DNA of 63,902 bases, counting the filler, from Hausera hauseri (lineage: Eukaryota): the NCBI GenBank assembly GCA_046269625.1. It is 11 parts of 11 records of this genome, joined end to end, with 100 filler letters (N's around TTAATTAATTAA, not from the genome) between each part and the next. Parts side by side here need not be neighbours in the genome. Positions count along the whole stretch, not along the records: positions 51,371 to 58,524 come from JBJURY010034780.1; 10 more parts are not named here. One strand, given 5' to 3'. Position numbers and translations under genes: made by a program. The notes below the pieces were generated by a model. The model ran no database searches and was not told the DNA's origin. It was given only the letters and a program-made list of their open reading frames with translations. Below, piece after piece: positions 30,106 to 63,902 of this stretch. Within the stretch, counting starts at the first letter, position 1; each line of letters begins with the position of its first letter.

Positions 30106-30114
30106 CTTTAACTT

Positions 30115-30633: not shown

Positions 30634-30661
30634 CAGGAGAACATCACCATGTTGTCTAGGA

Positions 30662-41120: not shown

Positions 41121-41127
41121 TGTTCCT

Positions 41128-41272
41128 ACGTTCGTTCGTTCGTTCGTTCTTTCGTTCTTTCTTCCGTTCGTTCGTTCGTTCGTGCTTTTGTTTGTTCGTT
41201 CGTTCGTTCGTTTTTTCGTTCGTTCGTTCGTTCGTTCGTTCGTTCGTTCGTTCGTTCGTTCGTTCGTTCGTT
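41128..41272. repeat. (CGTT)n / (GAAC)n microsatellite at the head of the array
   Basis: Directly visible; a short (GAAC)n sits at the equivalent position in the other copy (57800-57820). Confidence 0.92.
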
Positions 41273-41372: not shown

Positions 41373-42185
41373 AATCAGACCATGGGAACATGGGGAAAAA
41401 TCGATGGGAAAATTTCAAACGGGAAAAATTTCCCCTTACACAAGTCAAACGGCAATGGAAATGGGTTGAGCTCATAGCTCATCAGTAGTTGAGCATTTCA
41501 TATTATAGCCACCTTACGATCAGGCCAAAGGATCCAGGTGAAAATGGCAACCAAACGAACAAAGAAAGAGAAAAGACGCATTGTTATAAGTCAAAGTCAA
41601 AATCATATAGTAGGTAGAAGTGTCCGCTCCACCCCCAATCCCACAAAGTGCTCAGATGGACCTCGGACCTAGTTTTCCCAACCTTTCTCGCAATTCTGAG
41701 CATTTCATGTTTTGTGGTCGGAGATCCCCCAGCCGGAAGCATATGTCATATGTCGCACATATCACCGATGGAAATCGGTAGAGCTCGATGAGTGGAGAAA
41801 AATTTTCTAGCGCGGCGAGAGTTGAAAATTTTACTGGGCGGCTCTAGAAGCAAAAGAAGCAAAACAGGAAATGTTTTATGAGAATCCAGACACGAGTTAC
41901 GAATTGCGCAATGTTTGATGCAAATGTCAAACCGATGTCGTGGAATCGAATGCACATAATTTTGACTCGGTCTGACCATGGGAACATTGGGAAAATTGAT
42001 AGGAAAATTTCAAACTGTAAAAAGTTCCCATTGTTCAAGTCTGCTGGTTGTTGAAATGGGTTGAGCACGCAGCCCATCAGTAGTTGACTATTTCATTTTA
42101 TAGCAACCTCACGATCAGACCAATGGATCGGGGTGAAAAATGCAACTAAAGAACGGAAAAACGCATTGTTATAAAGTCAAAATCT
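41373..42185 (-). repeat. ~1.4 tandem ~590-bp units of the Maverick-associated array
   Basis: GACCATGG at 41378 and 41974; CGCATTGTTAT..AAGTCAAA at ~41577 and ~42162. Confidence 0.88.
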
Positions 42186-42327
42186 CTTTTTGTTTTGTAA
42201 AAAGTCGTGTAGAATGAAGACGACGAGCTCATGATTGAGTATTCACAACTCACAAGGAGAAAGATTGTGATGAAAAGTCACACATATCATAACAAAACAA
42301 CAGCAATAAAATAATACACATATATAT

Positions 42328-42707
42328 TTCACAAATGTGATTGAGATGTAAGCCACAATAAACAGTAATGTACACACAGTATAGCCATTGGATATTGATA
42401 ATGAACTCGATTATATTCAATACGGCATGATGATTGCTGTTAAATTTGAGAAACTAAAATCCAAGCCGATCAAATACTCTGATGACGTTGGTCGGATGGT
42501 GGACGTACACAGCAATCCAATGTTTGCCAGGAAACGATGAACTGTGTGTATTGACAATAAAGCCACCGCCTCCATTTTGTCGTAAATCACGCGGCACACG
42601 GTCCAGTGGAAATTTCACGCCCAAGAGCAGTTTTCCGTAGTGACTGAGCTCGGTAGAGCTAAATGTGAATTAAGTATAATAGTAATAGTAGTAATAAATT
42701 ACTTCAT
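42328..42707 (-). pseudogene. Maverick adenain-like cysteine protease with a 44-nt intron (42659-42702)
   Basis: Spliced: MNSTELSHYGKLLLGVKF..PLDRVPRDL..GFIVNTHSSSFPGKHWIAVYV..VFDRLGF*..HYQYPMAILCVHYC (catalytic H, D, Q and C positions present). Confidence 0.85.
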
Positions 42708-42745
42708 AGTATGACGACGAAGAAGTGAGGCACAGCAGATTTTAT

Positions 42746-43946
42746 TTATACAATGACGTTTCCGTTTTTCGTTATTTCAACCTAGGCATCAAATACACCG
42801 TAAATGTACATCACGGTGGACTGATCCAACACTTTAGCAAAGTGAACCTCTAGTCTCAGGTTTCCCTGCTGAGGTAGTTGAGTCCGTTCAACGTAATAAT
42901 CTGGATCCAGGACAAAGTAGAAGAATGGATAGGTGGACTTGAATAAATCCATCTATATGCCATTATTGACACTTTTGTTTAACAAACCAATTTTGCGCAC
43001 AATAGATTGCATATATGTGCAAACATAATCGCCGGTCTCGAAATCCTACTTGTATGTCTCAACAAAATCCGCATTCCGACCAAAACTGACGTAATTACCA
43101 TTGCTATGCGTAAACGTTCCCGAATCGGTCGTATAACTGCCCACTTGTTGGACAGTCGTTTGAAATGTAACGAGCACAAGTTTCGGCAATCGCATGTCGC
43201 CAAACAGGGCATCTTTTCAAAAAAGTAGTTGAACCTTTGGGTATGGTGTAAAAGACGAGTTTTGTGCGTTGTAATGGGTAACAGGCATTTTGTGTTTCCA
43301 AGCCCAATCGCTGTCCCATGAGCACAGATGGTTCTACCTTTACCCGTCGTACGTATAATCGTGCCTTGGTAATTTTCAGTATGGATTTAAGCTGTGCAAC
43401 TGCGGTTTTCAAACAAAAGACATTTCTGCTTCGTTTGAGCCGACTCATGGCTTTAACACCGGGCAGTAGGTATTTCGGCTGATCGAAAGAGTCAAAGTAC
43501 AGCGGTCCACACATGGTAAGCGGTTTTGATTCGGCCACCCATGTCTGACGGTTTGCCGCTGTGGTATCGTATCCACTGTAGTTCAGAGCCGTTTCAATGA
43601 GTGCTTTGATACTGTATAGACTAGTGTTGCCTTCGATTTTGACGCTGTTCAGAGTCAGTGAAGCCTCTTGGAACAGTGTGAGGAAAAGGTAAATGTTCGG
43701 TGTGACAGTGTCTATTGCAGCGAGAACTGTTTATGCAGCCTTTTTAACCATGACTTTTTCACAGATTAACGTATCGTTCAAATCGAGGTATTCATTATCC
43801 GATTCCATTACATTAAATTGAATGTCAATGTTATCATCCGTTGAAACCGAATCAACGGGGTACATTTCTTTAAATGCCGAATTTTCAATAACAACTTGTG
43901 GCGCGGCTATGTCGAATATACACAATTCAAATTTTGCAGATGCCAT
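42746..43946 (-). pseudogene. Maverick major capsid protein (double jelly-roll, PY/hexon-like)
   Basis: MASAKFELCIFD, EYLDLNDT, KALIETALNYS, DQPKYLLPGV, LYVRRVKV, YPLQRT, QGNLRLEVHFAK; stops and frameshifts. Confidence 0.92.
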
Positions 43947-43965
43947 TTGTTTATCTGTCAATGAA

Positions 43966-44328
43966 TCAATGGAAAATCGTACGACGACGACTTTTGTTTA
44001 TAGCTAATGAACTCGATGATGCTCTACGGCGTTTTCTTATAAAGCCACTGCCAGCGAATTGTTTTTTGACTGATTCAAGGACTCCCGGTACGGCGCTTTT
44101 TATTTCGGATAAGGCATGTTTATTCAGTGATGGTAAAATCGATTTGTTTTCATATAGTACGTCCTGTGTTGTTTTTGCTGCCACGGCACCGATACGCTTC
44201 AACACCGGAAATGATAAACGTGCCAATATACGCAACCATCCAGAGGCGTACTGTTTACCAACAAAATATGGCAGTTCACAGCCCTATTGCGGTTTACTGT
44301 AAATGGATGCGATTTCGGAATCAATCAT
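43966..44328 (-). pseudogene. Maverick core/DNA-binding structural protein (adenovirus core-protein-like), 120 aa
   Basis: LPYFVGKQYASGWLRILARLSFPVLKRIG..DVLY..QFAGSGFIRKRRR..RRRTIFH; lies between penton and MCP; one internal stop. Confidence 0.75.
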
Positions 44329-45246
44329 GTTGTTGTTGGATTCGACGGAAATGAAGAGTTTGACTGGTTGTGGTACAGTACAGAAATTCAATAATGAAGT
44401 CCGCGTCATATCGGATATTCACTTCAACATTTTTTATAGATGTAGATGCCACGGGTAGGTGCATTGGATTATCGAGCTTGACAGTAACATTGTCGCCGGC
44501 AGTATACTTGCTGCTTTCCAGATAAATTGCACAGTATCATGGCGAAAGCTTTTTCCAGTGTAATTTTGACAATATCTTTAGCCAGATCAAATTTAATCAA
44601 CCCATTTGCATCTGACTCGAAAACTTTACATATCTCCTTAAATATTTAATCTGAAGAAGAAAAGTTTTGGCAGAGATATTCTACAGATTCGCAATAGCCA
44701 TTGTCTCCAATCGATACGTATGACGTTGACACCATTTTAGTTGTATAGGTAAATTTTACTGTTGTCTGTTAATGTACGGGACTTAATCTAGGAGCAGCTA
44801 CATATTCACTTTTAAGTTGTTGACCTTTGTATTCTGTATTTTTGAGTCCAAATTTCTGTGCCATATCAGATAACTCAAAGGTAACAGCAAAATTAAAATC
44901 TGCCATAAATGTAAGTTTTGGTCTAAAATAAAAACACCGATTTTGCCGTGTGAACCGTAATCTGCTTCGGTCGTGCAAATACCCGATTTTCCGACTGTTA
45001 TTTTATTGACAGTAATTGTTTGAGGACAAGAATGTGTTTTGGTTTCAGTAACAGTCTTGTACGTTATTTTCATCCTACTTTCAATGTCACCGGTGCGTAG
45101 GGAATGTTAAATTCCGTCATTGCAACCTCCCATTTTTCAGCAGATAAATCCAAAGGATTGTTCCGAACTATAACGTATTTACTGGCTGATTTGTTCGGAC
45201 GAGTCGTCGGATAACTGTTGCTCGGCAACACCATGTAAATACTCAT
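44321..45246 (-). pseudogene. Maverick minor capsid protein (penton/PX) paralog 2
   Basis: MSIYMVLPSNS..NPLDLSAEKWEVAMTEF N-terminus; DNPM.LPV..LFISVE/HFRR-type C-terminus; internal deletion relative to 54576-55609. Confidence 0.85.
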
Positions 45247-45288
45247 TATCTCGATGATAGTGATGATAATGATGACGCAGTTTGCTTA

Positions 45289-45881
45289 TTATCGACGTCG
45301 AAAATGCAACATCAAATGTGTCGTTGATCTAAACAGAAATTTAATGGGTTCTCAAAATTCATTAAGCATATACATGGAAATACTGTGCACAATATTGTGA
45401 AACAATGATAAGTACATGGGTCTAAGCATATTAATGCGAACAGTTTCACCCGTTGTTTTGTACGTGTCAGAATCCAGTTCGATGGAAGCTAGCAGTTGTT
45501 TACGTTCTATACCAATGAGTATGGATTCTGTTAAGTCCATTAAAATGTTTAATCCACGAAATGCTCCATAGAGTTGTGGTTTGTATTTAGCAACAATAGG
45601 TCGTCCAACAATGTTTTGATAGAATTCGCGTTGTGAGAAACCCATATTCCGAGCCAATAATTCATCAAAGGAAATATACGTAACATTGCCATGTAGTATA
45701 ATCAAAATATGACCATCAGCGTTTATTTCCCATGTCTTTACGGCTAATGTAGCCGTTTTCTTGACATATTCACACAATTCCGGTTCCGTTTCCATTAATA
45801 CATCGTGCGGTATAATATAATAGCGGAAGACTGATTTTGACTTAGTCCACTTTACTATAATATCGGATTCCGCATTGGATG
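45289..45881 (-). pseudogene. Maverick minor capsid protein (penton/PX) paralog 1, 5'-truncated by the contig end
   Basis: LARNMGF, NILMDLTESILIG..KQLLASI, LRPMYLSL, PIKF..THLMLHFRRR*. Confidence 0.85.
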
Positions 45882-46329
45882 NNNNNNNNNNNNNNNNNNN
45901 NNNNNNNNNNNNNNNNNNNNNNNNNTTAATTAATTAANNNNNNNNNNNNNNNNNNNNNNNNNNNNNNNNNNNNNNNNNNNNACCCGACTTTTCTTTAAAA
46001 AAACCTTTTTTTAAATGTTGGTATCTAGTCAGAAACCTGACGTGTCTATGATCCGTGCACCACAACATGCCTCCGGCATTACTTTCCAACCCCTTTCCTT
46101 TTTTGTTTTCAAAAATAACACACATTTCTAGCATACTCACTCGTAACACGGACATTGCTTACACCCTCTATACATCTCTATCCTCTTTCCTACACACTTC
46201 CGACTTTTATTTGTCGCACCATAGTTCTGTGCTACATCTGTCTGACTCACTTTCTTCTCCGATCATTCATCTCAACCTTTACTTTCACCTCCGAGGTGAT
46301 TCAGACCCTGATCCTTCTACTAAAAGTTC

Positions 46330-49300
46330 CTCCAAAACAAGATTCGGTCGTCGTCTTGCTGACTGTGCACAACCTGTCTCTCCCAATCTTCCTTGCAGAG
46401 AGTTCTTCCTCGATAAAACTAATTCAAGCCGCACTTGGCTACAATTTCATTTACAATGACTAAAAGCCAATCATATTACCGATTCTTTTTTGCGAGACAA
46501 CAGCTTGTTACTTCTTTTTCCAGCTAACATCAAGTATCAAATCAATAATCTTACTGATATCCTTACTTCGCCAATACTATACGACATGCTTTATGAGTCT
46601 GTCCTTCATATTACCGATTCACCGATTGATAATATAATACAGAAGTACTTTAAGAAACACGCTATAGGCAACAAAAAACCTTCTGACTTTCTGCAGACCT
46701 CTATTTCACATCTAAGTGCTCTTGGCGTTACCCCCACCAACAATGCGGATTTATTCGTCGTTATTTCCTTTCCTCGTTACCCATTTCCATCAGAGCTCTC
46801 CTTACTGTCGTAGACGACTCGACGGCGATTGAAAAACTTGCCCTATTGGCTGATAAAAGTTTCGAAATCTTGTGAACCAACAACTCACAACCCGTAGCTG
46901 CAGCAACCACGCATACCTCATCTCACGTAGACACGATTGTTTTCGCACAGCAACTACAATTAATGCAGAAACAATACGATACTCTACAGCATTCAATCTC
47001 CGTCATCACGGCTCAACTAAGTAATCTGTCTACGTCTCGGTGAGGCCAAATTTACTCATCGCGTTAGTGTAGCCTCTCCAGGCACTCATTTCGTTCCATA
47101 TCTCCTGGCGGACGAATGATTTGTTTTTATCACAAGAAATTTCGTAGAAATGCAGAAAAATGACTTTGGGGTTGTAGATATTATGACGAGCGATTCGCGG
47201 TGGACAGCCCTATCTGTATTTACCACACAAAATTCCACTCTAGACAGATCGTATGTTCCGGGATGTAAACATTACAAAAACAACTTCAGTTTTTCTTCAT
47301 CTTCTTCTCCTCCTCCTTCTGCCTACCAGTCATCTTCTTTCCCTACACAATCTTCAAAAAACTAAAAAGGCCGCCAGATGTAACGGCACATTCTGGCATA
47401 GGCAATACTGCTTAGTCTTCTGGCCGCCTTAACACCGCCTCCGCAGTTTTTCTGTTAAAAGCTACAGTGTTCTCTAGCAGTGCTCCACATATCGATTTTC
47501 TCATCGACTCAGGAGCTGCCTTTTCACTCCTCCCTTTGTCCTTCGTCTCTACATCAACGAAAGTTTTTTCACCTCCGCTTTTCATCGCCAGCAATCAAAC
47601 TTTGCGAATCGCAGATACAACGGAACTGGTTTTTACATTCTCAAACTTACCAGGCAAGTTTGTCTGGAAATTCCACGTGGCTAACATTAAATCGCCAATA
47701 ATCGGCTCAGACTTTTTGGCTGCACACGACCTGCTAGTTGACTGCAAGTATGGTTGTTTGCTACGTAGAGACTCCGTCGTGAACGTTAACAACTGTCTAA
47801 CAGACAGCGCAACAGAACAATCGATTGCAAACTCACACTTGAATTTGGCAAATTGCTCATCTGTTGTTAACGACACATCTAGTAGTTTATCTATTTCCTC
47901 AATTACACCCCAAACACCGAAGTCGATTTTAAAACAATCGGTTAAACCGAATGTTGACAACGGCAAAGTCGTTCGTTCTTCGCCAATCACAGTCACCGCT
48001 TCCTCTGATAATACGCCTCAATCATTTTTTTCACTAGATTCCAATCTCAAATTCCACATCAATTCCTCTTGTCCTTGCATACTAAAAAAAGACCCTAGCT
48101 TTAAACCCCTGTCAGCAACTTATAACCACATCGTCACCCAACACCAAAGACTTATCAGACAAAAGGTGAGATTATCATCGCCCCGTAGACGAAAAGCCGT
48201 GGAATTAGAGTTTAATGAACTCGAAAAATCTGGTATCATTCGGAGATCCAAATCACCATGGGCTTCACCATTACATATAGTGGCAAAAAAGGACGGTACT
48301 TTTCGACCATGTGGAGACTACCGTCTAGTAAACAATTTAACCATCATGAATGCTTACCATTACCGCTCGTAAAAGACATCCTGCACAGTCTTAACAACAC
48401 CAATACCTATTCCACAATAGATCTGCACAAAGCTTGCCATCAAATCCCCGTTGCACCCGATGACGTTCCAAATAGTGCTGTCATCACTCCATTTGTCCTT
48501 TACGAATACATGTTTATGCCATTCGGTTTACGTAACGCAGCCCAAACTTTCCAACGCCACATCGACACTGTTCTCTCAGGCCTTGATTTTGCTCATCCTT
48601 ACATCGATGACATATTAGTTGCCTCCAAATCTGTGAAACAACACCATGAACACCTCCAAATTATTTTTCACAGACTACATCATAGTAACTTACAAGTTAA
48701 TTTCTCCAAGTGTAATTTTTTTCAGAAACGTGTCAATTTCTTAGGCCACATTTTCACTCCTTACGGCCACTTTCCACAACCTGATCGACTACAGCAACTA
48801 AAAAACGTAACACTACCAACGACCACTACAGATATGAGAAATTTTCTTGGAACACTAAATTTTGTCCATAAATACATACCGCATTGCTCTGAGCTTACGG
48901 CACCTTTCGCACACATCTCATCTGGAAAGAAAAGACAGTTAATCCAATGGACTCCCGATTTAGTCACCAAATTCGACCACTTACGCGAAGGCCTTAAAAC
49001 CGTCAAAATATTGGCCTACCCAAAATCCGACGCGGAGATGATACTTACCATCGATGCCTCTTCCACAGCTACTGGTTCAATACTACACCAAGTTTCCAAC
49101 GACGTCGACGAACCTTTCGAATTTTACTCTCGAAAACTTACATAACCAGAAAGCCAATATTCTACATTTGATCGTGAGCTACTAGCCATAATTCTGGCAG
49201 TAAAACATTTCAAGCATCTCCTCCTCTCTCGCCCATTTGCCATCTAAAGAGATCGCAAGCCTCTGCTACACATCATGTCACTAAAACAGCAATCACTAAG

Positions 49301-51199
49301 GCAGAAACGACAGATATCGTACCTATCTACATTTTGTTTTGTCATAAAGCATATTTCAGGCACGGAGAATTTGGTCGCGAATTTCCTGTCACGGTCGATC
49401 GGCTCAATTACGGTTAAACTAATATTTTCTACCGAAATTCTAAAGTTCAACCAACCGTCTGCCGATATTCTTAGCACTTTCAAATCCTTCGAAATCATTG
49501 ATGGCATTGCATACGACACATCTAACCCCGGTAATAAAAAAATCATTCTCGCCCCTTCTTTGCAGAAACCAGCTTTTCTTCACACGTATTCACTTCATCA
49601 CCCAGGCTCGAAAGCCACGTTTTGCTTGCTCCAACGTCATATAGTTTGGCCATCAATGCGCACAGATGTACAGGGTTGGGTTAAGGAATGCGTCGCCTGT
49701 CAAAAATACAAAGTCAACAAACATCTTAAACCGCCGCCTTACCATTTCCCATGTACATTACGTTTTCATACCGTCCATCTTGATCTCGTCGGACCTTTAC
49801 TTTCCGATAACGGGTATCAACATATTCTCACTATGATGGATCGTGATTCTTGTTGGCCTGAAGCCGTTCCCCTCCGCTCAACAAACACCGATTCAGTAGC
49901 AGACGCCTTCATCAAAATTTTGATTAGTGGTTTTGGATCCCCACGGCATATCATAAGGAACCCAGGTCCACAGTTCGAATCGGAACTTTTCAAATCGCTT
50001 GTTAAACGCTTGGGAATATCGCATTTTTATACAACACCGTACCATCCACAAGCAAATGGCCTCCTTGAAAGATTCCATCGAACTATAAAAATTTCTTTAA
50101 AAATCCTAGCAGACAATCATCGTAATTGGATGTCCATCCTGCCATTTGTTCTACTCGGTTAGCGCGATACCCCTTCCACCATCACGGGTTGTGCTCCAGC
50201 CGAGGCACTTTTTGGGACTCCAATGCGGGCTCTGTTCGAACTTTCCGACCTTGACGACAATCCGACAGACAAAAACATTCGCGCAGCACAGTCGTACTTT
50301 GTTGAGGTCAACTTAGACTCATTCTGCCGCTTATTTAACAATAAAATATCGTACATACCGAAGGATTTATACTCAGCCAAGTTTGTATGGCTGAAGGATC
50401 AATCACCTTCAGGCTTTGGACCTCAATATGTTGGTCCATACAAACTACTTCACCTCTCATCTCATACAGCTACCATCTTACGCCAAGAAAAACCCTACAA
50501 TGTTTACTTTTCAAACCTTAAGCCCGCTTTCTTCGTTGATGACAATCCGGATGCCGATTCTACCTCCAACCCCAATTTAACTCTCGCTCCTTCCACTCCT
50601 TTCTCAGACTTTCTTCACGATTTCGCTCTGTTACAACAACCACTCTTCTCTCACACTAAATCATCCTCAACTTCCTCACCGCTTACTGAATCTACATCGC
50701 TTACTCCGTTTTTTCCGCTCGTATCTTTTCCCTCTCTTTCACCATCCCCACCACCTTCAGTTTCTTCGCCTCTCTTGTCTGATTTATTCCCTCCACCATC
50801 TTCAACGTTTTCACCTCAAGCAACACAACACAGTGAATCAGAAAACCCTACAAAACGTCCACCACAAAATATCGTCCAACAATTGAGCACAAACCAACCA
50901 AATAGGACACGCAGAGTGGCATTCAGTACCTATATCAGGGAAAAATCCGTAGACAAAACACAACGCCTCATACACACCAAAACGCAATATAAACCAACCA
51001 ATTTTAGAGTTTCGCCTCCTTCTGTTTCACCCTACAGTTTCTTTTCTGCCACAGGGGGGAGGTGATGTAGTGCCACGGTCTAAGACATGGCTCTCCATTT
51101 CTAGCAATAGAGTCACCGTTTGGTCTATATTTTGTTTAACAGACGAACAGCGCACAGTAGTGTCAAATAAAATCAATATTAGTATTTGGCTACTCACCA
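46330..51199 (+). mobile_element. Gypsy LTR retrotransposon relic, copy D (gag, -1 frameshift site, protease, RT, RNase H, integrase, tail, PPT, 3' LTR at 51066-51199)
   Basis: FLIDSGAAFSLLP, WASPLHIVAKKDGTFRPCGDYR, YIDD, TIDASSTATG, HHPG..CVACQ, PYHPQANGLLERFH; PPT AGGGGGGAGGTGA; LTR TG..CA with AATAAA. Confidence 0.95.
47356..47365 (+). promoter_or_regulatory. -1 ribosomal frameshift slippery site A_AAA_AAC plus gag stop
   Basis: The -1 frame from 47356 is the frame of the protease ORF at 47467; the same heptamer plus TGA occurs in copy C (18138-18147, minus strand). Confidence 0.75.
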
Positions 51200-51372
51200 G
51201 ACTACCAATTATTCTGTTATTTAAAATTTTACCGCCTAGTACGTAATCATCACTAAAAAACCTAGAGTTTNNNNNNNNNNNNNNNNNNNNNNNNNNNNNN
51301 NNNNNNNNNNNNNNTTAATTAATTAANNNNNNNNNNNNNNNNNNNNNNNNNNNNNNNNNNNNNNNNNNNNTA

Positions 51373-51832
51373 ATGGTAACTGATGAGTTTGATGAGAACT
51401 GGTCAGATAGATTACGCAACCGTGACGTTATTGCCATCGACAATTTATTTTATCTAGCAGCGAAACAATCGGACTTCAACAACCTATTCACGAAGAGTGA
51501 ATGGCACCGTAATGTGAGTGTTATTTTTATTACGCAAAAACATGTTCCATCAGGGCGGACAGCATTGAACAAGAAATCTAAACGTACACTATTTGGTGTT
51601 GTTCGAAAATTCCCGTGATCAGATTATCATTGATTATGTTGCACAACATTCATTTCCTCACAACCGAGCCTACTTAATAGATGCATATTATGATGCTACG
51701 ATGGAGCCACACGGATACTTGTTCATCGACTTTACGCAACAGTATCCCGATGACATGCGTGTACGAACAGACATTTTCAATCAGAAAGGTGGTGTATGTG
51801 TCTATAAGCAAATTCAAAAATCGGCGACATGA
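51373..51832 (+). pseudogene. Maverick packaging ATPase (A32/FtsK-like), C-terminal part, frameshifted
   Basis: VIAIDNL (Walker B), NLFTKSEWHRNVSVIFITQ, LVLFENSRD, AYYDATMEPHGYLFIDF..MRVRTDIF. Confidence 0.9.
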
Positions 51833-52029
51833 TTGCGATAAAAATAAAGAATTTCCAAAAAACGATTGTTAAACATAAACAATCTACTACCAAGCGGGTG
51901 TCCGGCGGCAAGAAACGTGTATCAAAACAAAGTTCCACTACAGTCAAGCGATTAATCAATTCTGTGTTTCGTCGAACAACAACATCAGCACCTAGACGCC
52001 AATTACCTTCAAAGTGGCAACGGTTATAA
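51829..52029 (+). CDS. Small K/R-rich hypothetical viral protein (66 aa)
   Basis: Intact ORF overlapping the ATPase stop (ATGA); very basic; contains VSGG. Confidence 0.5.
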   Translation: MIAIKIKNFQKTIVKHKQSTTKRVSGGKKRVSKQSSTTVKRLINSVFRRTTTSAPRRQLPSKWQRL

Positions 52030-52059
52030 ACAACTACGTCTAATGATCAATACAAAAGC

Positions 52060-52380
52060 ATGCGATACAAACGTAGTCAGCTGTACTTTATTGCTTTGCT
52101 CAAGACACCTACTAGATATAAGCGAAACATGTTACGATCATTCCCGCAATTTGTAGTAGACGATTTGTTGAAAATTTTGTACAATATCGTTGTGGGTCAC
52201 GTTGTCATTGGACGTGGAAAGCGCAATATACTAAAGTATCGAAAACGACTCATTGATTTAGCCAACGCCCGTAGAAAACGACTGAAACAAGAGGTCATGT
52301 ACCAGCAAGACGGCGTATTCCTTGGTGCAATTCTACCCATTGTCACGTCATTACTGGGTGAACTCATTGGTTCTGCATAA
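52060..52380 (+). CDS. Maverick small structural protein with a C-terminal amphipathic helix (pVI/cupiennin-like), 106 aa
   Basis: ..LLKILYNIVVGHV..YRKRLIDLA..QQDGVFLGAILPIVTSLLGELIG resembles the QxGGFL..LP family found in Polintons. Confidence 0.7.
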   Translation: MRYKRSQLYFIALLKTPTRYKRNMLRSFPQFVVDDLLKILYNIVVGHVVIGRGKRNILKYRKRLIDLANARRKRLKQEVMYQQDGVFLGAILPIVTSLLGELIGSA

Positions 52381-52518
52381 TAGTATAAGCAATAACGGTA
52401 AGTATATAATGATTCGGCGCATGATTTTTATCTTTCTGTCCCAGTTTACCGAATCTTTCATTTATGATTCGTCCTAATTGTTGTAATGCAAGCAAAACTG
52501 ACACCATCGACGGCAATA

Positions 52519-53490
52519 ATGGGCGATGTGTGGTTCGATCGGCATCATTTCGTCGGTTATACTGGCGTCGACAAACTGACAAAGACTGTCTAACAAAGTC
52601 GGCAACATAGCCAACGTTGGTTCGAGAAACAGCTAACATACAGCCTACACAAACCGATAAGAAGCCGGTTTCCAACTCGTGCATACCATGCTGACGATGT
52701 AAATAACATTTGACAAATAGATGTGATGGAAATTATTCCGTATGACAGCATCAACGATTGGTATCAGTACGTGCTGACATGAGTTGATGTGTTTAGTCGT
52801 TTTGCACGTGCAATTGCCGTAAAATCTAAATCCGGTAAAGAGATGGCCGATGCTGTCCAGACGCTGATACAACAACAACAACCGAATCATTTACAAACGG
52901 ATTTGGGTAAGGAATTCTACAACGCCCACGTTGCGGTGTAAACCACTACTCGCAGTTTTCCCAATATAAGGCGGCACTCATTGAACAATTTAATCGAACA
53001 TTGCGTGGTCGCCTAAACAAATTCTTTAAGAAGCAAAGCAACAAACGTAGGGCAAATGTACTGCCGTGGCATCAATGGATTACGGCCGATGGATGTAATC
53101 GATGAATTGGACATGTGACTTTATCAAAACCGACGACGACGACCAACTAAACGTCGTCCCAAGTATAAAATCGGTGATTATGTACGTATTTTAAAAATAA
53201 GCACGACGCCATTCATTAAGAACTTTAATCAAAACTGGGGCGACGAAGATTTCCACATTTCTGCAATCAACACTAAACATATACCTGTCATGTACGTTTT
53301 AGAGGATGAAAATGGTGAGGAAATATGCGGTAAATTTTCCGAACAGGAATTGCAGGTACTGCCCGAGAAACATGATGTATACCGTATACAGAAAATTATA
53401 CGTTCAGGTGGCAAAGGTTGGAATAAACAATATCTCGTCAAGTGGCACGGATACATTACAAAGAGCTGAGTATTTTCATCGCAGATTTAA
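52519..53490 (+). pseudogene. Maverick retroviral-like integrase with C-terminal chromodomain
   Basis: YTGVDKL, TYSLHKPIRSRFPTR, QIDVME, VDVFSRFA, LQTDLGKEFYN, EQFNRTLR, KYKIGDYVRI, NWGDEDF, YRIQKII..YLVKWHGY; stops and deletions. Confidence 0.93.
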
Positions 53491-54536
53491 TGATGATAAT
53501 TTATTTGGTACTTGATAGTAACAGATCATTATCACAACATGACTACGACAATGACGTCAATACCTCTAAACAGTTTACCATGCACTTGGACCAACCGATC
53601 GATTTACGCTACAGAGACTGGGAAATGGCTTTGACGGAATTCACTTTTACATTTTCACCAATGATAATACGTCAGAACAGTGGTAATTACTTTACCCGAA
53701 AAGAAACGTACCCTAATTTAAGTCGTTTTCGGACAATCCGACACAATAACCGATATACTCTTCGCAACGATTTGCGAAAACATTTCACAGTTCATGCTTA
53801 TTTTTCAAACTACCGTATGAATCTAATGCATCGAAATCCCATGGAAATGCAGTTTATTTCTATAGATGATGCTTAGGCATGGGGGTTTTAATCAGTCAAT
53901 GTACACTCAAAACATCTACGGCTAGGTGGAAATGTTATAATTAGTGAAAAATTGGACCTTTCATCTGATGTGGAATCTAAGTCGGAATCAGTCTTCCGCT
54001 CATATATTATACTACACAATTTATTAATGGAAACGGAACGGGATTTGTAAGAGTACATCAAAAAAACGGCTACATTAGCCGTAAAGACATGTGAAATAAA
54101 CGCAGATAGTTATATTTCGATTATACTACATGACAATGTTACATATTTTGTCTTTGATGCATTATTGGCTCGAAATCTGGGTTTTTCACAACGTAAAGTC
54201 TATGAAAACATTGTTGGACGATCTATTGTCGCCAAATACAAACCACAACTCTATGGAGCATTTCACCAAATCAATATTTTAACGGACTTAACCGAATTCG
54301 AACTCGTTGGTGGAGAACGTAAACAACTGCTGGCTTCTATCGAACTGGATTCTAACACGTACAAAACATCGGGTGAAACTTTCCGCGTTAATATGCTCAG
54401 ACTCCTGTACTTATCATTGTCTCACAATATTGTGCACAATATTTCCGTGTATATGTTTGATGAATTTTGGGAACCCATTAAATTTCTGTTTGGGTCAACG
54501 ACACATTTGACGTTGCATTTTTGACATCGTCTATAA
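53490..54536 (+). pseudogene. Maverick minor capsid protein (penton/PX) paralog 1
   Basis: MIIYLVLDSN..FTMHLDQPIDL..WEMALTEF; INILTDLTEFELVGG..QLLASI..YLSL..PIKF..TLHF*HR. Confidence 0.87.
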
Positions 54537-54575
54537 TAATCAAACTTAATAATCATCATTGACATAATTGTGAAC

Positions 54576-55609
54576 ATGAGTATTTACATGGTGCTGCCGA
54601 GCAACAGTTGTCCGACGACTCGTCCTAACAATTCAGCCAGTGAATACGTTGTAGACTGGAACAATCCTTTGTATTTATCTGCTGGAAAATGTGAGATTGC
54701 ACTGACGGAATTTAACTTTCCCTACGCACCGGTGACATTGAAGGGTACTATGAAAATAATGTACAATAAGACTGTTACTGAAATCAAAACACATTCTTGT
54801 TATCTGACACTTACTAACAATAAAATAACAGTTGGAGAATCGGTCACTTTCACGACCGAAGCAAATTACGGTTTATACGGCAAGATCGGTGTTTTTATTT
54901 TAGATCAAAACTTACATTTTATGGAAGATTTAGAATTCAAAAATACAGAGTACAAAAGTAAGCATATTAAAAGTGAATATGTAGTTAGTCCTAGATTAGA
55001 TCCCGTATATTACCAGACAACGGTGAAATTTACCTATACAACAGAAAGAATATCAACGTCATACGTATCAATTGGCGACAATGTCTATTGTAAATTTGTA
55101 GCACAGCTCAGTCAACATTTTTCTTCAAATCAAAAGTACAAGGCGATATTTAAAGCTTTCGAGTCAGATAAAAATGGCTACATTAAATTTGAACTGGCTA
55201 AGGATATTGTTGACATTTCGTTGGACGAAGCTTTGGCCATGGTACTGGGTTTTGAAAAACAGCAGTTTGATTGAAGATGGTGGCGGCACATGTTGCAACA
55301 CTCAAACCCAAACTGAAAAGTGGACTAATTCAAACATGCATTTACGTGAACGTCACCGAACCGATTTTCGTCGGTGGAGTACGTGTACGGCTAGTCCGTG
55401 CAATTTATCTGGAAAGCAGCAAGTATACTGCCAGCGACAATGTCACCGTCAAGCTCGATAATCCAATGTACCTAACTGTCGCATCTACATCTATAAACAT
55501 TGTTAAAGTGAATATCCGATGTGACGCGGGCTACCTTATTCAATTTCCGTACGGTACCACAACCAGTCTAACTCTTCATTTCCGTCGAACCCAACAACAA
55601 CATAATTGA
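54576..55609 (+). pseudogene. Maverick minor capsid protein (penton/PX) paralog 2 (frameshift near 55271)
   Basis: MSIYMVLPSNS..NNSASEY..NPLYL..EIALTEFNFP; LAMVLGF; IYVNVTEPIFVGG..LVRAI..NPMYLTV..IQFPYGTTTSLTLHFRR. Confidence 0.9.
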
Positions 55610-55964
55610 TTCCAAAATCGTTTCCATTTACAGTAAACCGCAGCAAGGCAATGAACTGCCGTATTTCATTGGTAAACCGTATGGCTCTGGTTGGTTGCGT
55701 ACATTGACACATTTAGCATTTCCTGTGTTGAAGCGTATCGGAGCCGTAGCGGAAAAAACAGCATAGGACGTACTTTATGGAAACAAATCGATTTTACTAT
55801 AACAGAAGGAACACGACTTGTCAGAAATAAAAAGCGCTGCACCGGAAGTTGTATAATCCGTTAAAAAACCATTCGCTGGCAGTGGCTTGATGAGAAAACG
55901 CCATAGAGCATCGTCGAGCTCATCAGCTATAAACGTACGTCGTCGTCGTACGATTTTCGATTGA
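55602..55964 (+). pseudogene. Maverick core/DNA-binding structural protein (start codon mutated ATG>ATA)
   Basis: Same length and sequence pattern as 43966-44328; YGSGWLR, FAGSGLMRKR, RRRRTIFD. Confidence 0.75.
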
Positions 55965-55983
55965 TTGATTGCCAAATAGATAA

Positions 55984-57195
55984 ATGGCATTTGCAAAATC
56001 TGAATTATGTATATTTGACAAAGACACACCACACGTTTTTATTGACAATGTAGCATTTAAAGAAATCAACCCCGTTGATTTGATTTCAACGGACGATAAT
56101 ATTGACATTCAATTTAACATTATGACATCGGACAATGAATAACTGCAATTGAACAATACGCTACTCTACTCGTCAACGGTTCTCACTGCAACGGACACTG
56201 TTACACCGGCCAATTACTTTTTCCTCACACTGTTCCGACAGGCTTCACTGACTCTAAACAGTGTCAAAATCGAAGGCAACACCAATCTGTCCAGAATCAA
56301 AGCACTCATTGAAACGGCTCTAAATTACAGCACTGACACGAAAACGACTCATTTGACGAAAACCATCGGATACGACACCACAGCGGCAAACCGTCAGGTA
56401 TGCGTGGCAGAATCAAAAGCACTTACAATGTGTGGACCTCTGTACTTTGACTTTTTCGATCAGCCCAAATACCTACTGCCTGGTGTTAAAGCCATGATTC
56501 GGATCAAATAAAGCGACAATGTCTTTTGTTTGAAAACCGCCGTTGCAAATCTCAAACCCATACTGAAAATTACCGAGACACAAATATACGTACGTCAAGT
56601 AAAGGTAGAACCATCTGTGCTTATGGGACATCGATTGGGCTTGGAAACGCAAAATGCCTGTTACCCGCTACAATGCACAGAACTTGTCTTTTACATCATA
56701 CCGAAAGGTTCGACAACGTTTTACAAGGAATCTCTGTTTGGCGACATGCGATTGCCAAAATTTGTGCTCGTTACATTTCAAACGACTGTTTAACAAACGG
56801 CAAGTTATACCACCGATTCGGAGACGTTTACCCATAGTAATGTGAATTAAATTAGTTTGGGCCGGAATGCGAATTTCGTTGAGACGTACAAACAAGACTT
56901 TGAATATAATGATTATGTTTGCACATATATGCAATCTATTGTGCGCAACATGGGTTTTCTGAACAAAAATGTTAATAATGGAATATCGATGGATTTGTTC
57001 AAGTCCACTCATTCATTCTTCACCTTTGCCCTGGCTCCCGATTATAACATTGAACAGACTCAGCTTCCTCAGCAAGGAAACCTGAGACAGAAGGTTCACT
57101 TTGCTAAAGCGTTGGAGCAGTCTACAGTGATGTGCATTTACCGTATATTTGATGCCGATGTTCAAATAACGAAAACCAAAACCGTCAGTGTATAA
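55984..57195 (+). pseudogene. Maverick major capsid protein, 403 codons in one frame with four in-frame stops
   Basis: MAFAKSELCIFD, TLFRQASLTLNS, KALIETALNYS, FFDQPKYLLPGV, YVRQVKV, RLPKFVLV, FTFALAPD, QGNLR..HFAKAL. Confidence 0.94.
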
Positions 57196-57239
57196 ATAAA
57201 ATTCGCTGTGTCTCACATTTTCTTCTTCGTCGTCGTAAT

Positions 57240-57638
57240 ATGAAGTAATTTATTACTATTACTATTACACTTAATTCACATTTAGCTCCATCGATCTCAG
57301 TCATTAGGAAAAACGGCTTTGGGGCGCGAAATTTTGTGGCATGTTTCTTTTGGACTGTGCTACGTGATTTACGACAAACTGGCGGCGATGGCTTTATTGT
57401 CAATACACACGCTTCATCGTTGCCGAGCAAACATTGGATTGCTGTGTTCGTCTACCATCCGACCAACGTCGTCACAGCATTCGATCCGATCGGATTTTAT
57501 TATCCGCCATCGTTAGTTTCTCAAATTGAACCACAATCATAATGTATTGAATATAATGGTTTTCATTATCAACATCCAATGGCTATACTGTATGGACATT
57601 ACTGCTTATTGTCGCTTACATTACAATCACTTTTGTGA
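57240..57638 (+). pseudogene. Maverick adenain-like cysteine protease with a 41-nt intron (57245-57285)
   Basis: ATG-AA|gtaatt..tttag|C gives MNSIDLSH; KFCGMF; FIVNTHASSLPSKHWIAVFV..AFDPIG..HYQHPMAILYGHYC (catalytic Cys changed to Tyr in this copy). Confidence 0.87.
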
Positions 57639-57833
57639 AATATATGTGTATTATTTTATTGTTTTTGTTTTGTATACCAAAGAGAGAACAAATCATGAGA
57701 AATAATAATATGATATGCTACAATCATTCTCCTTGTGAGTAGTAATACTCAATTATGAGCTCATCGTACAAAATAAAATTTACACACGACTTTGTACAAA
57801 ACGAACGAACGAACGAACAAACGCATTTACAAC

Positions 57834-58524
57834 GATGATGATTTTTACTTTTTAACAATGCGTTTTTTTGTTCGTTGCATTTTTCACCCGATCCATTGGT
57901 CTTATCGTGAGGCGGCTATAATAAGAAATGCTCAGTTACTGATGGGCTACGTACTCAACCCATTTCCACAGCCATCAGACTTTAACAGTGAGAAATTTAT
58001 ATAGTTTGAAAATTTCCCATCAAATTTTCTCCATGTTTCCATGGTCAGATAACGTAGAAATTGTGCGCATTCGATTCAAGGACATCGGTTTGACATTTGC
58101 ACCGAACATTGCATAACTCGTAACTCGTGTCTTGTTTCTCATAAAACATTTGCTGTTTTGCTTCTTTTGTTTCTGGCTCCTCCCAGTAAAATTTTGGACT
58201 CTCACCTCGCTATAAAATTTTTCTCTACTCATCAAGCACTAAGGATTTCCATCGGTGACATGTGCGACACATGATATGTGATTCCGGCTGGGGGGGGGCT
58301 TCCGAATTCGAGACATGAAATGCTGAGAACTGCGAGATAGGTGAGGAAAACTTGATCGGAGGTCGATCTAAGCACTTTTTGGGAAGTGAGGACAAAATGA
58401 CACTTCTAACTACTACATGATGATTTTGACTTTTTAACAATGCGTTTGTTTGCTCGTTCGTCCCATTGCATTTTTCACCCCGATCCATTGGTCTAATCGT
58501 GAGGTGGCTATAAAATAAAATCTT
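57834..58524 (+). repeat. Tandem ~582-bp units downstream of the Maverick protease (1 complete plus the start of a 2nd)
   Basis: GATGATTTT.ACTTTTTAACAATGCGTTT...CCGATCCATTGGTCT.ATCGTGAGG.GGCTATAA recurs, with its ATG at 57858 and 58440. Confidence 0.9.
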
Positions 58525-58847
58525 NNNNNNNNNNNNNNNNNNNNNNNNNNNNNNNNNNNNNNNNNNNNTTAATTAATTAANNNNNNNNNNNNNNNNNNNN
58601 NNNNNNNNNNNNNNNNNNNNNNNNAAAAATTTTTTACGCGCCAAATTCAAATTTTTACACGTACCTAAAATCCATACAGTACGCGTGCTTGTGTGTATCC
58701 AATTTCTGACTGTGTGTCTCCCATCTCCGCCCTATTAATCGTGCGTGCGTGTGTCGTTTTTTCTACCCCATGAATCATCCGCGAACCAAACATTTCCTTC
58801 CTTCTCGGGGGGGGGGTCTGATCTGGTGCGCTCCTATGTACCTACTA

Positions 58848-58993
58848 TTTTGAACTTCCCACAATGTCGATGATAGGATTCTGTCGCCAGATTCTATTAA
58901 ATCATACGTTGTCCATAGATCTTCGTCATTTTCTGGTATCAGTGTGACTTTTCCATTTTTATTCTTATCGATATATTTATTAACGCGCTTCAT
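58848..58993 (-). pseudogene. PELO: Pelota/Dom34 N-terminal fragment (first exon or decayed copy)
   Basis: MKRVNKYIDKNKNGKVTLIPENDEDLWTTYDLIESGDRILSSTLWEVQ aligns by eye to the pelota N-terminus (MKLV.K.I.K...G.VTL.PE..EDMW..YNL...GD....ST.RKVQ). Confidence 0.75.
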
Positions 58994-59219
58994 AGCTTCT
59001 GTTTCACAAATCTTACAAAAGAAATCTCTCTTCAAATATTAAGCAGTTTAACTTGTGTTGAAAAAAATGACGTTCAACAATTGAAATTTAAAACATAAAC
59101 ATTTTCTATTTTTTTAACGACCAAAAATTAGATTGAGTAAATTTTCAGAGGAAACACAATCAAAAACATACTCATAACTTCTTGCAAGATAATTGAAGGC
59201 TATAAAATAAAAGTCAAAA

Positions 59220-62200
59220 AATTGAAGTAGAAATTGGAATTGTATTAGGCGAAAGAGTAGAAATAGAAAATGAAACAGAGGTAGCGGTAAAGATAGGAAG
59301 AGAGATAGGAATAGAAGCAGAAGATGTTGAAAATGATGAAGCAGAATTAAGGGCAGAAGGAGGAGGTGGAACAGGTGTAGCAGCAGATATAGGAACAGCA
59401 GGAAGTGCAGGAGTGAGAAAAGATGTTGATATACCGATTGGTGAAGTGTCGTCGACGAAGAAGGAGAACTTTAAGTTGGTAATTTGCAGTGTAGGTTCTT
59501 TGCCGTCTTTAGAGATAATAGCGTTCTACAAATGCAGTTGTACCAGTTTATAGGGCCCTAGATACCGCGGCTGGAAACCACACGGCGATTGATTTTTTAG
59601 CCATACAAATTTTGCCGAATACAAGTCTTCAGGTAAATATGTTTCGTCTTTATGAAGTAACCTGCAAAACGAATCTTTAATGACCGTAACGAAGTGATTT
59701 TTTGCCGCCCGTATCGTTTCATCTGTAGGAGTGTTGTTTTGGGTAATTAGTTCGAATAATGATCGTACAAGAGCTCCGAATAAGGCTTCAGTAGGTGCGC
59801 ATCTCGTAGAAGTAGACGGAATGTTCCGCCAGCCAAGCAGAACAAACGGAATAAGATTTGTCCAACTAGTGTTGTACTCTGCAAGAATTCTTAGTGACGT
59901 TTTCAATGTTCGGTGGAAACGTTCTAAAAGTCCATTCGATTGGGGGTCATAAGGCGCTGTATGTATGTGATGGATCCCCAGTCGGTTAACAAGGGATCTG
60001 AACAGGTTGGATTCAAACTGTGGACCCTGGTCTGTGATGATGAAGCGAGGTGATCAAACCTGCTAATCCATGTACGAATAAAAACATCAGCTATAGTGTC
60101 GATATTTGTGCTCCGCAGAGGGATGGCTTCTTGCCATCGCGAGGAACGGTACATCGTTGTGAGAATGAATTGATGACCGCTGTCTGGAGGAAGAGGGCCG
60201 ACAATGTCAATATGCATGGATTCGAAATACAATGTGCAGGGAAAGTGGAACAGTGGTGGCTTTAAATGCTTAGTTGTTTTGTATTTTTGGCAAGTTACAC
60301 ACTCCTTAACCCGTGTCTGCACATCAAAACGCATTGACGGTGGAGCAGACGAAAAGTGGCTTTAGCACCGGGATGATGTAGCTAATGTACACTGTTAAAC
60401 GCATGCCTTTGCAAAGGTGGTGCAAGAATTATTGCGGAATGACCTGGTTTGGAAGTGTCTAAAGCCATGCCGTCAACAATTATGCATCACTTAAAAGAAT
60501 GAAGCATGTCCTGAGGTGGCTGGTTCTGTTGAAATTGTACTTGTGTAAAGATTGGTGAAAAATTAATCGAACCAACCGACCTATATAAAAAGTCGACAAG
60601 CAAATTATTAACTCCGTTAATATATTTTATGTCGAAGGAAATGTCGATAAGTATGACATCTGTCGTTCTTGGTGTGTGGAAGGATGTTTCATAGCCATGA
60701 TGTTAAGTAATGGTTTGTGATCGGTTTGTATAGTAAAATAACAAGCGACAAGTTGATGGGAGAAATGGTTTAAAGCTAGAATGGTGGCCAATGATTCTCG
60801 ATCTAACGCTGAATATCTAGTTTCAGGGGATGTTAGCTTACGAGAGAAAAATTCTAGCAGTTGATTTTTTCCTTTGTTGATTTGCTGGAGTACAGCTCCT
60901 ACTGAAGTCGTTGAAGCGTCTGAAGTAAGGATGAGTTCCGCATAAGGCTTGGGGAAAGCGAGAATGTCGACGGTCTTAATTCCTTCGCGTAGCTTATCAT
61001 ACTTATCTACCAATTCAGGTGTCCACTGGATTGACTGATGTTTTTTGCCACCGCTTAAGTTTGTAAATGTTGCTGTCAGTTCGGAACAATGCGGTACATA
61101 TTTATGTAAAAAGTGTAGCGTACCAAGGTAGCTTCGCATTTCAGTGGTCGTACGTGGTAACTGGATATTCTTAAGAGCTTCAACTCGGTCTGGTTGAGGA
61201 GAGTGACCGTCTGGTGAAATAACGTGGCCCAAAAAGTTGGTGCGTTTTTTGAAGAAATGGCATTTGTCAAAATTAAATAGGAGATTATGGTGGTTAAAGC
61301 GTTGGAATGTTTCGCGATGGTGTTCCTCATGTTGTTTGACCGAAGAGGAAACGATTGGAATATCATCAATGTAAGAGGCGCAAAAGGAAAATCTGAGAGA
61401 ATTGAGTCAATATGTCGCTGAAACGTCTGTGCGGCATTTCGCAAACCGAACGGCATAAACAGGTACTTGTAGAGGCCAAAAGGAGTACTGACAACGGTTT
61501 TTTCTATGTCTTCAAGTGCTACCGGTATTTGGTGGTATGCTTTGGCCAAATCTATGGTCGAATAAATGGTAGTTGAATTAAGACGATGCAGGATGTCCTT
61601 GATGAGTGGCTAGGGGTACGTATCCATGATTGTCAAGTTGTTCGACAGGAGGTAGTCACCTCATGGTCTAAAAGTACCGTCCTTTTTTGTACAACGTGTA
61701 AAGGTGACGACCAAGGAGATTTGGAACGGCGTACAATGCGGGAGTGTTTTAGTTCGCAAAATTCGGCTTTTGCGGCCTGTCTACGACGAGGTGACAATGG
61801 TCGCACCTTTTGACGTATTGGTCGTTGATGTTGTGTAATTATGTGATGTGTAGTGCTGTTTGTAGAGGTAAACGAACGATCTTTTTTAAGTACGCGTGGA
61901 CATCATGTGGTAACAAATTGCTGTAAAGTTGTAGGCAACTGTGAGAGATTCGGTGATGATGGTGAAGCAGCTGAGTAGTAGCGAATGCAATTTGTGAATT
62001 GTTTTGTGATGTGAATTCGAGTGGTATTTGGTGTAAGATAGTCAAATTGAAAATGGTGTTGGATAAAATGATTTCGTCAAGTGAATGAACACTGATGGCA
62101 GTACCACAATTATCGACATCGAATCTCGATCGAATATTAATATTATTATTCAAAAATTTACGAATTGAATTACTGTCATGGAAATTCGAATTATTTATTG

Positions 62201-63902
62201 ATTTTCCCAAAAATGACCTCCCTGTCCCGATCGACTGCACGGTAGTCGAAATGCTAATTACATGCTGAGCAATGCTGCCAGTGATGCCGCTCCTCAGACA
62301 TCGTTGACTGCAGTCAACCAATAAATTATAATGTAATAGAAAATCGGAACCTAGAATTGCTGTCTGGACGCTAGAAATTGTGAACGTCCAGTGGAAAGGT
62401 AAATAGAATTTTGGTAAGATGAAAGGTAATTTAGCAGTGCTAAAAATGTGCAGCGGTTGACCTGAAGTGGTGTATAACGGTTTAATTCTGAATGGTAAAT
62501 TTTGTACAGGGAAAGATTGTGGTAATAAGGAAACCACTGCACCTGTATCAATGAAGAAATCAGCTAATTGCATTTTAGGAGCGGTGACTGCAGCCTTTAG
62601 AGTAAAGACAGCAAAAAAGGAGTGTCGGCATTTAGAAAAGGTAATAGTGCTTTTGCCAGAGTTTGCCGTGACTTTCGGTGGCAAATTTAGCTTTCTGAAA
62701 AGGTAAACTAGGACGACTATTATAAGAAAAGGTAGTACGTCCGTCGTTTGTATCTGGTTTGAAGGTGCAGTCTGGAGTGCATTTATAGGCTTGATTTTTA
62801 AACTTTGCGTTATAAATGCAAACAACGGTGTCTGAAAAAAAACTTTTATTGTAAAATGTGTAAACTAGGCAGCATTTATTGGCAGTCGTATTGAATCTGC
62901 TGTGATAGTAGCAGATTAACGACCGCGCAAGCGATAGTGATCTGTTTCTAGATGCAGGAGTGGCGCGGTCAGTAGCAAAATCCCTTCACCTGGACAGGGA
63001 AAGCTCGTTTAATTTGTTGTTTATATTGTTAATCGTTGCGTGTAGTGCAATATTTTCAGCACGTGGCTGATTGAGTTGTTGTTCTATTTATATGTTATTG
63101 GTTTAAATATCGTTGGAAGCAACTGCCGACGAAACGACTGGTGCGGAATGTAAATGTAGAACATCGTGTGTTTTATTGGCTAATTCGGCCAATTTTTCAA
63201 GAACCGTGGAGTCCTTCACCACGTAAGTAGGGCTCGGATTTGGATGGGTAACGCGTTAAGAAAGTAATGACGCAGTAGTTCGGGGTTGTGTTCTTTAGTG
63301 ACGCTGAGACTGCGCAGATGTGCCAAAGACGCGCGTAAAAATTTTGATGGTCGTTGTGTGCCTATAGCATTGTCGTGGAAGAAGCGTTGTATGATGGCGT
63401 CCATTGAGAGCTGTTAGTATGGGTCAGGAAGTTCAAAGATTTCAAAGATGTTGTGAATTCGTATATTATTTTTCTGTTAGGGAGTAAGAAGAGGAGATTG
63501 TGTGCCTTGGTCAAAGGGTCGGTGATATTGCTTGATGTAGCCAGAGTTGATGGAATTGCAACCAAGTTTTGCTGGAGCCTTGGTTGTCAATGAAGAATTC
63601 GGTACAGTTAGGGAAAGGGGCGCAAGAGGTAGTAGATGAAGTATTATTGGTAGAAGCAAAAGTGGGTTTTTGAAGTAGTATGATAGATTTTGGTTTTGTG
63701 GTGGTTTTATCCGTGGTGTCTATGGTGGGCGATGAATTCATGCCACCACGGATGCGGCAGTGTATGTGGAGGTGGATATAAGTTGACGAAGGTCGCACAG
63801 TCCCAACGAGAGGTACCGTGGAGCCGTGGTGTGTGAGGTAAAAGTCAGGTGAGCGAATAAAAGTGGAGATAATGTTGTAGATAATAGCAGTGTTTAGTTG
63901 TG
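59220..63902 (-). mobile_element. Gypsy LTR retrotransposon relic, copy E (gag, protease, RT, RNase H, integrase, truncated tail)
   Basis: FFIDTGAVVSLLP, KAYHQIPV..TPFGLY..MPFGLRNAAQTFQR, TSDASTTSVG, CVTCQ, HIDIVGPLP; no PPT or LTR at the 3' side. Confidence 0.93.

Follow-up and report, generated by a model that had tools for sequence, protein, structure and literature searches.

A lineage of short adenain-type proteases, encoded by Polinton/Maverick elements of animals, very likely carries an inherited spliceosomal intron at its start codon, which the host would remove constitutively from a nuclear transcript. The DNA analysed, referred to below as the window, is 63,902 nucleotides long and is made up of 11 contigs, each of 4-9 kb, with spacers in between. 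Two of these, at 51371-58524 (plus strand, 7.2 kb) and 41373-45881 (minus strand, 4.5 kb), are fragments of one Polinton/Maverick family and are ~80% identical to each other. Each contains a copy of the protease gene:

57240..57244, plus strand: coding part of protease exon 1 (ATG and 2 nt, phase-2 junction; the 5 nt are identical in 7/7 DNA loci of the lineage)
57245..57285, plus strand: predicted GT-AG intron of 41 nt (80% A+T; donor GTAATT; same position in the intact loci L002-L006)
57286..57638, plus strand: protease exon 2, adenain type, decayed (fold predicted from the intact relative L005 matches adenovirus and adintovirus proteases)
42703..42707, minus strand: coding part of protease exon 1, second copy (ATG at 42707)
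42659..42702, minus strand: predicted GT-AG intron of the second copy, 44 nt (GT at 42702, AG ending at 42659; 82% A+T)
42329..42658, minus strand: protease exon 2, second copy, decayed (by sequence comparison)

These intron boundaries had been proposed in an earlier note on this DNA and were found to be correct when both copies were read again, as was its statement that the unspliced ATG runs into a stop after two codons, giving a two-residue peptide in both. Other statements about the pair held only in part. The sequence quoted for the spliced N-terminus was a composite of two broken copies. The frame, described as open through the catalytic His, is indeed so in the 42 kb copy, where 67 open codons after the acceptor span the catalytic His and Asp; in the 57 kb copy, however, a stop at 57305-57307 interrupts exon 2 after six codons, the frame shifts near 57355 and the catalytic position is without a Cys. 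The 42 kb copy is defective too, with a 12-nt gap ahead of the PLD motif and a stop beyond the catalytic Asp. On this reading of their frames, the window copies are fossils of an intron-bearing protease family and neither encodes a working protease. The length difference between the copies lies, as claimed, inside the intron, in a TAC/TAT run, but a difference of 3 nt says nothing about frame. The pair is also separated by 21 indels over ~3.5 kb, 13 of them not multiples of 3, and the putative intron has changed less than its flanks (1 difference in 41 aligned bases against 5.7 expected, p about 0.017), which was counted against an intron. The window pair by itself thus does not establish an intron; both copies are decayed, and it is the intact relatives that decide the question.

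Five such relatives (L002-L006) came from a scan of metagenome contigs in which the query was P0003, itself closely related and intact. All of them have an undamaged protease body of 110-116 codons with the His and Cys motifs, and in all of them ATG-AA is followed at the same codon by GTAA, an AT-rich stretch and AG. The predicted introns of L002 to L006 are 38, 37, 43, 39 and 41 nt long, respectively, so that all three frames occur (0, 1 and 2 mod 3), and their A+T content is 0.82-0.91, against 0.55-0.62 in exon 2. When the window copies are included, ATG-[AG]A-GT[AG]A and an acceptor are present in all seven DNA loci of the lineage, which form four independent groups with the window pair as one; for a fixed acceptor with 26 allowed positions upstream, base composition gives a chance of ~0.001 per locus of finding this motif. 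The signals are of U2 type, with a GTAA[TG] donor and a [TC]AG acceptor in 7/7 loci. A branch motif, [CT]T[AG]A[CT], is found at varying distance in five of the seven (in the 41-nt intron of the window there is a branch-point-like TTAAT at 57271-57275, plus strand); the motif is common in AT-rich DNA, and its absence from L005 and L006 was counted against the intron.

Length varies without regard to frame even between close relatives. Over 4.35 kb, L005 and L006 share 97.9% identity, and the only indels between them are one of 2 nt within the intron and one of 10 nt in intergenic sequence. Between L002 and L003 the intron contains one indel, of 1 nt, and substitutions at 7/37 positions; exon 2 has none of the former and 21/334 of the latter (Fisher p 0.014), and the substitution count upstream is 0/89. 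Contigs of run X1 (a run of unspecified kind; 0.21 of words), when compared with window positions 56400-57760, also have indels of 1, 2 and 3 nt within the intron; joints that exactly skip the intron number 0 among the 15 of 20 examined, a count that has no bearing on splicing either way. As a separate observation, 10,219 contigs of this run match the same interval at a likeness of at least 80%, which points to a very high-copy family in the organism of that run.

If the segment were translated, the 1-nt and 2-nt indels would be frameshifts ahead of an intact exon 2, and they contradict the idea that the segment is not an intron but codes for a hydrophobic extension, translated in the exon-2 frame from a start further upstream, with the window copies sharing a nonsense change in it. 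This idea draws on L006, P0001 and P0005, which can be read through without a stop from an upstream Met in the exon-2 frame (a point counted against the intron), on eight further proteins that, like P0001 and P0005, were called as continuous ORFs through the segment, and on the window lengths, which are both 2 mod 3. However, the upstream in-frame ATG of L006 is missing from its twin L005 and is absent in four of the five intact loci, and L002-L005 have either a stop or no ATG upstream in the exon-2 frame. All that the extensions have in common is the translated donor and acceptor, and, since a read-through is visible only if the intron length fits the frame, their occurrence can be put down to ascertainment. 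A coding extension is therefore barely credible.

The fold predicted for L005 exon 2 (from 18 sequences, pLDDT 93) has its helix 1 at residues 2-16, and the model matches the adenain of Terrapene box turtle adintovirus, its best viral structure match, with a TM of 0.91 and human adenovirus protease with a TM of 0.79-0.83. Since exon 2 alone gives the protease fold, exon 1 would add little beyond the start codon. The family is short (~100-130 aa), ending after the helix of the catalytic Cys, without the C-terminal third of the adenovirus protease.

The model also bears on the possibility that the segment is merely an AT-rich spacer or 5' UTR, with the protease starting at an internal Met or at a non-AUG codon near the acceptor. 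P0004 and P0006, closely related to the window copies, carry an in-frame Met ~13 residues in, a start at which would keep the catalytic His, Asp and Cys (this, too, was counted against the intron), and several gene calls begin at Ile or Leu codons directly before the acceptor Ser. However, a start of this kind would cost most of helix 1 in the L005 model, and neither window copy has the Met in question, nor do L002-L006, in which the first Met of exon 2 is residue 63 or 78, past the catalytic His. Nor would a spacer account for the fixed ATG-[AG]A-GT[AG]A 35-47 nt upstream in seven DNA loci and ten proteins. This makes a spacer or UTR highly improbable, and the view that the protease needs splicing is borne out, since the intact relatives would make none from an AUG otherwise.

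Other ways of supplying an N-terminus were tried and rejected. Joining a spliced leader to the acceptor by trans-splicing would put the leader AUG out of frame at a phase-2 junction (flatworm spliced leaders end in AUG, according to the accessible portion of PMC12582326). Fusion of capsid and protease by stop read-through, an arrangement mooted in the available part of 10.1101/2024.03.25.586562, has no fixed frame to work with, the ATG lying 2, 3, 4, 38 or 44 nt past the capsid stop. A leader acceptor just upstream of the ATG is not available in the window copies, as there is no AG in their spacers of 38-44 nt.

The same site can be recognised in protein databases. Of 821 proteins matched in a profile search, the best 120 were used; together with earlier matches, 139 were anchored and classed by their N-terminus. 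Most of the 139 begin with a Met 18-20 residues ahead of the anchor motif, and removal of the intron puts the intron-type Met at 19. A translated donor was recognised by the words [YNH]EV for ATG-AA-GT and WS[KN] for ATG-GA-GT-AA, and one or other of these occurs 35-47 nt upstream in all ten of the long read-throughs with an acceptor Ser; in these ten, which reach the donor, the Ser is at position 18. Five other long N-termini have no donor word.

A tree was built from the protease body only (108 columns), with the N-terminus excluded. One branch of 58 rows, whose support of UFBoot 98 / SH-aLRT 96 comes from a bootstrap that is unsettled, contains 34/34 intron-type rows, 15/18 truncated calls and nine Met-start rows, whilst the remaining 88 rows include 82 Met-start and no intron-type rows. 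The proposed re-inspection of 5'-truncated protease annotations in other Polintons was thus fruitful. The 34 intron-type rows comprise seven from DNA, ten with a donor word and 17 with acceptor-side read-through only, so that 27/34 depend on protein N-termini and not on DNA, and six of these 27 were classed by eye. The nine Met-start rows within the branch were likewise classed from protein only, where intron loss and cDNA origin are not separable; these rows, and the small size of the tree, were counted against the intron. Rows dropped beforehand were P0008, a repeat protein, eight without the anchor motif, amongst them P0009, which looks like a read-through, and one with <70 body residues. 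The genome contigs yielded L007, a distantly related protease (37%) whose ORF is continuous and follows a capsid-like stop, and L008 and L009, 19-residue matches that were left out; they gave no match to the capsid query. In a search of viral contigs with the protease piece, alignment A3, capsid, P0038 and integrase, the only hit was L001, an unrelated phage-like locus, which was dropped.

The rest of the longer window fragment follows the gene order of L005, a nearly complete element: ATPase, small ORF, integrase, two minor-capsid-like ORFs, small ORF, major capsid and protease. All of its genes carry stops or frameshifts:

51376..51823, plus strand: 3' part of the packaging ATPase gene, frameshifted (52-60% identity to the L005 ATPase; Pox_A32, E 4.8e-6)
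52516..53454, plus strand: retroviral-type integrase gene, decayed (41% identity to the L005 integrase; rve, E 1.3e-12)
53502..55591, plus strand: two tandem paralogous ORFs, decayed, probably minor capsid genes (labelled from their position)
55617..55847, plus strand: small conserved ORF, decayed, flanked by the minor and major capsid genes (49% identity to a 99-aa ORF of L005)
55984..57195, plus strand: major capsid protein gene, decayed, without an intron-sized gap (its stop precedes the protease ATG by 44 nt)
57195..57200, plus strand: AATAAA overlapping the capsid stop, a possible poly(A) signal judging from its sequence (in both window copies)
42746..43946, minus strand: second copy of the major capsid protein gene, decayed (its stop precedes the protease ATG by 38 nt)

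The family thus has the rve integrase, A32/FtsK-like ATPase, double jelly-roll capsid and adenain-type cysteine protease by which Polintons/Mavericks (Eupolintoviridae) are defined; that all core genes are intronless, a described trait of Polintons rather than a formal criterion, does not hold for this lineage. The window major capsid is 48% identical across all 403 aa to L005 ORF 6748-7959, which has an Atlas feature score of 0.97 to clusters with PF21738 DJR-like_dom in 15-65% of their members; direct Pfam and PDB sequence searches with the capsid gave no match. The L005 homologues of the putative minor capsid ORFs had no informative Pfam match. The Peptidase_C5 match of the protease is below its cut-off (E 0.005-0.05), and the adenain assignment rests on the fold of the intact relative. 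The window Polinton fragments have no polymerase gene. L005 bears an ORF of 1298 aa (8977-12873) which, from its motifs, we take to be polymerase-like; its sole library match is to Endonuclease_7 (E 1.4e-4), an endonuclease VII-type segment at residues 623-657. The pPolB2 of nematodes and oomycetes carries an HNH domain, according to the accessible text of PMC10748475. L005 also encodes a TBP-like protein at 1188-1637 (PF00352, E 5e-18). In both window copies the protease is followed by a tandem unit of ~590 nt (57800-58524 and 41375-42184) with no long ORF by eye, at a site where the intact relatives have an ORF of 154-168 aa; the unit is found again at 39995-41150 in a third contig, adjoining a Pao-type retrotransposon, together with (GTTC)n runs.

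The explanation that we favour is that one lineage of animal Polintons/Mavericks, with a protease of ~115 aa, has an ordinary U2-type intron, 35-47 nt long, that interrupts the protease gene behind its fifth coding base. The element would be transcribed in the host nucleus and the intron excised constitutively by the spliceosome, which would place the start Met on helix 1, where the intronless relatives start; RNA that remained unspliced would give the two-residue peptide alone, and splicing may in this way affect protease dose. The intron was most likely gained once, its site being kept, amongst proteases that are ~50-60% identical, whilst its length and interior drifted, and it was probably lost in a few members. 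In L002-L006 the capsid stop and the protease ATG are 2-4 nt apart; in the window copies the distance is 38-44 nt, with the AATAAA intervening. Such spacing suggests that the protease is expressed either from the tail of a capsid transcript or from an internal promoter. There is no AATAAA in the 60 nt preceding the protease ATG in L002-L006.

Dependence on splicing could in theory be put to regulatory use, and the earlier note proposed that it acts as a switch between transposon and virus modes. This proposal found no support: the splicing signals look ordinary, the polymerase-like gene of L002 and L003 is split as well, and both window copies are dead. It can be put in a general form, in which the start-codon intron is a control point of the life cycle and host splicing of the capsid-transcript end sets particle maturation. 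Splicing would then possibly depend on tissue, stress or piRNAs, and in the window lineage it might compete with the AATAAA at the capsid stop. The general form is unlikely, though if true it would amount to a molecular switch between the two modes. Quite unlikely is the specific form, in which splicing is regulated by tissue, stress or small RNAs, such that retention keeps the protease off during integrase and polymerase work and splicing leads to virion maturation. An intron kept at one site across such diverged proteases would suit this, as would the two-residue product of unspliced RNA in 7/7 loci, which is a clean off state, and the germline intron of the P element, a splicing switch in a DNA transposon, is a precedent. 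In L005, moreover, the protease alone would need splicing, since each of the others (ATPase, integrase, both minor-capsid-like ORFs, capsid and polymerase-like ORF) is one uninterrupted ORF that begins with ATG.

However, the donors (GTAATT, GTAAGA, GTAAGT) and acceptors resemble those of the introns of a CHD gene in the window, one of which shares GTAATT. The interior of the intron drifts freely, so that conserved regulatory sites could hardly be accommodated there. In its 5' part, the polymerase-like gene of L002 (1687-2243) contains five GT-AG micro-introns of 42-46 nt, and that of L003 (1580-1993) four of 41-42 nt, of the same type as the intron of the protease; the exons between them match in size (97, 122, 63/57 and 69 nt) and are stop-free in the running frame, whilst in L005 the gene is a single ORF on the opposite strand. 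In that sublineage, splicing would thus not be confined to the virion module but would be needed on the replication side too. Finally, most relatives outside the branch start with a Met and require no splicing step. Constitutive removal remains the reading to which these features point.

The CHD gene, of Mi-2/CHD type, lies on a separate contig (8863-13916) and has seven introns by eye. Six of these are 42-53 nt and the seventh is 133 nt; the protease intron fits the six in size and would match host introns, as had been stated, if the contigs come from a common organism. The best matches of the gene are to trematode flatworms in six of eight cases, the top match being a nematode protein at lower identity. 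A flatworm host for the Polinton contigs is likely on these matches, and the Polinton lineage described here is probably flatworm-associated. Two contigs, at 18738-23642 and 23743-31012, are CpG-depleted (o/e 0.74 and 0.37, against 0.92-1.39 elsewhere in the window), so that the window probably mixes two organisms. A further contig (31113-34712) has a long uninterrupted ORF with a PI3/PI4-kinase domain, and four others (1-8722, 14597-18637, 45982-51270 and 58625-63902) are related LTR-retrotransposon fragments with RT, RNase H and integrase, 62-71% identical in the pol region.

That Polinton core genes are described as intronless, as the earlier note stated, is supported by the available text of two sources: the ORFs of 134 intact vertebrate elements are intronless (PMC8097293), and in the Caenorhabditis Maverick the core genes are called intronless, with introns in the cargo genes (10.1101/2022.07.12.499685). 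No introns were found in endogenous virophage genes, as far as the accessible part of PMC8547959 goes. A literature search, outside which lie Repbase, subscription papers and supplements that may hold spliced annotations, found no conserved spliceosomal intron in a Polinton protease, and the portions available of 10.1101/697771, PMC10748475, 10.64898/2026.10.13.758929, PMC6431247, PMC8547959 and PMC8363768 contain no description of one. The start-codon intron of the protease, as read from genomic and protein sequences, is a lineage-wide feature and corrects the general statement that Polintons are intronless. ORF callers that assume intronless core genes produce truncated or spurious N-termini, as in the 49/58 branch rows without a normal Met start, and intact elements might be mistaken for dead ones in intron-blind calling. 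It would also follow from a conserved spliceosomal intron that transcription of the morphogenesis module is nuclear and that the host does the processing. The splice junction would be a marker that tells true late transcripts from DNA contamination, and thus a handle on whether and when animal Polintons express their virion genes. The intron is also one more instance of a lineage of small DNA viruses gaining an intron and keeping it for long.

In adenoviruses, the pTP and polymerase genes have their start codon on a tiny upstream exon. In the marbled eel adomavirus, LO4-LO7 have acceptors directly upstream of the ATG and use a three-exon leader (accessible text of 10.1101/341131). Morphogenesis genes of adomaviruses and adenoviruses depend on host splicing, as would the protease here; there, however, a shared leader is joined to alternative ORFs, whereas here a micro-intron lies within the coding sequence. 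The cryptophyte polinton-like viruses resemble the present lineage in having introns in a gene adjoining the capsid gene, but these are self-splicing group I introns of 309-376 bp in a small unannotated gene, and so neither spliceosomal nor in the protease (available part of PMC12220804). Eupolintoviral elements of dinoflagellates have introner insertions, which are mostly no older than the host introners, as far as the text at hand of PMC12166617 goes; in contrast, the intron described here has one site common to a deep viral lineage and an unconserved interior. The animal Polintons/Mavericks (adintoviruses, Eupolintoviridae) share with our elements the order ATPase, integrase, two minor-capsid-like ORFs, small ORF, capsid and adenain, but the elements described here differ from those already known in having a conserved intron in a core gene, and a protease of ~115 aa as against the 185-204 aa of the matched adenains.
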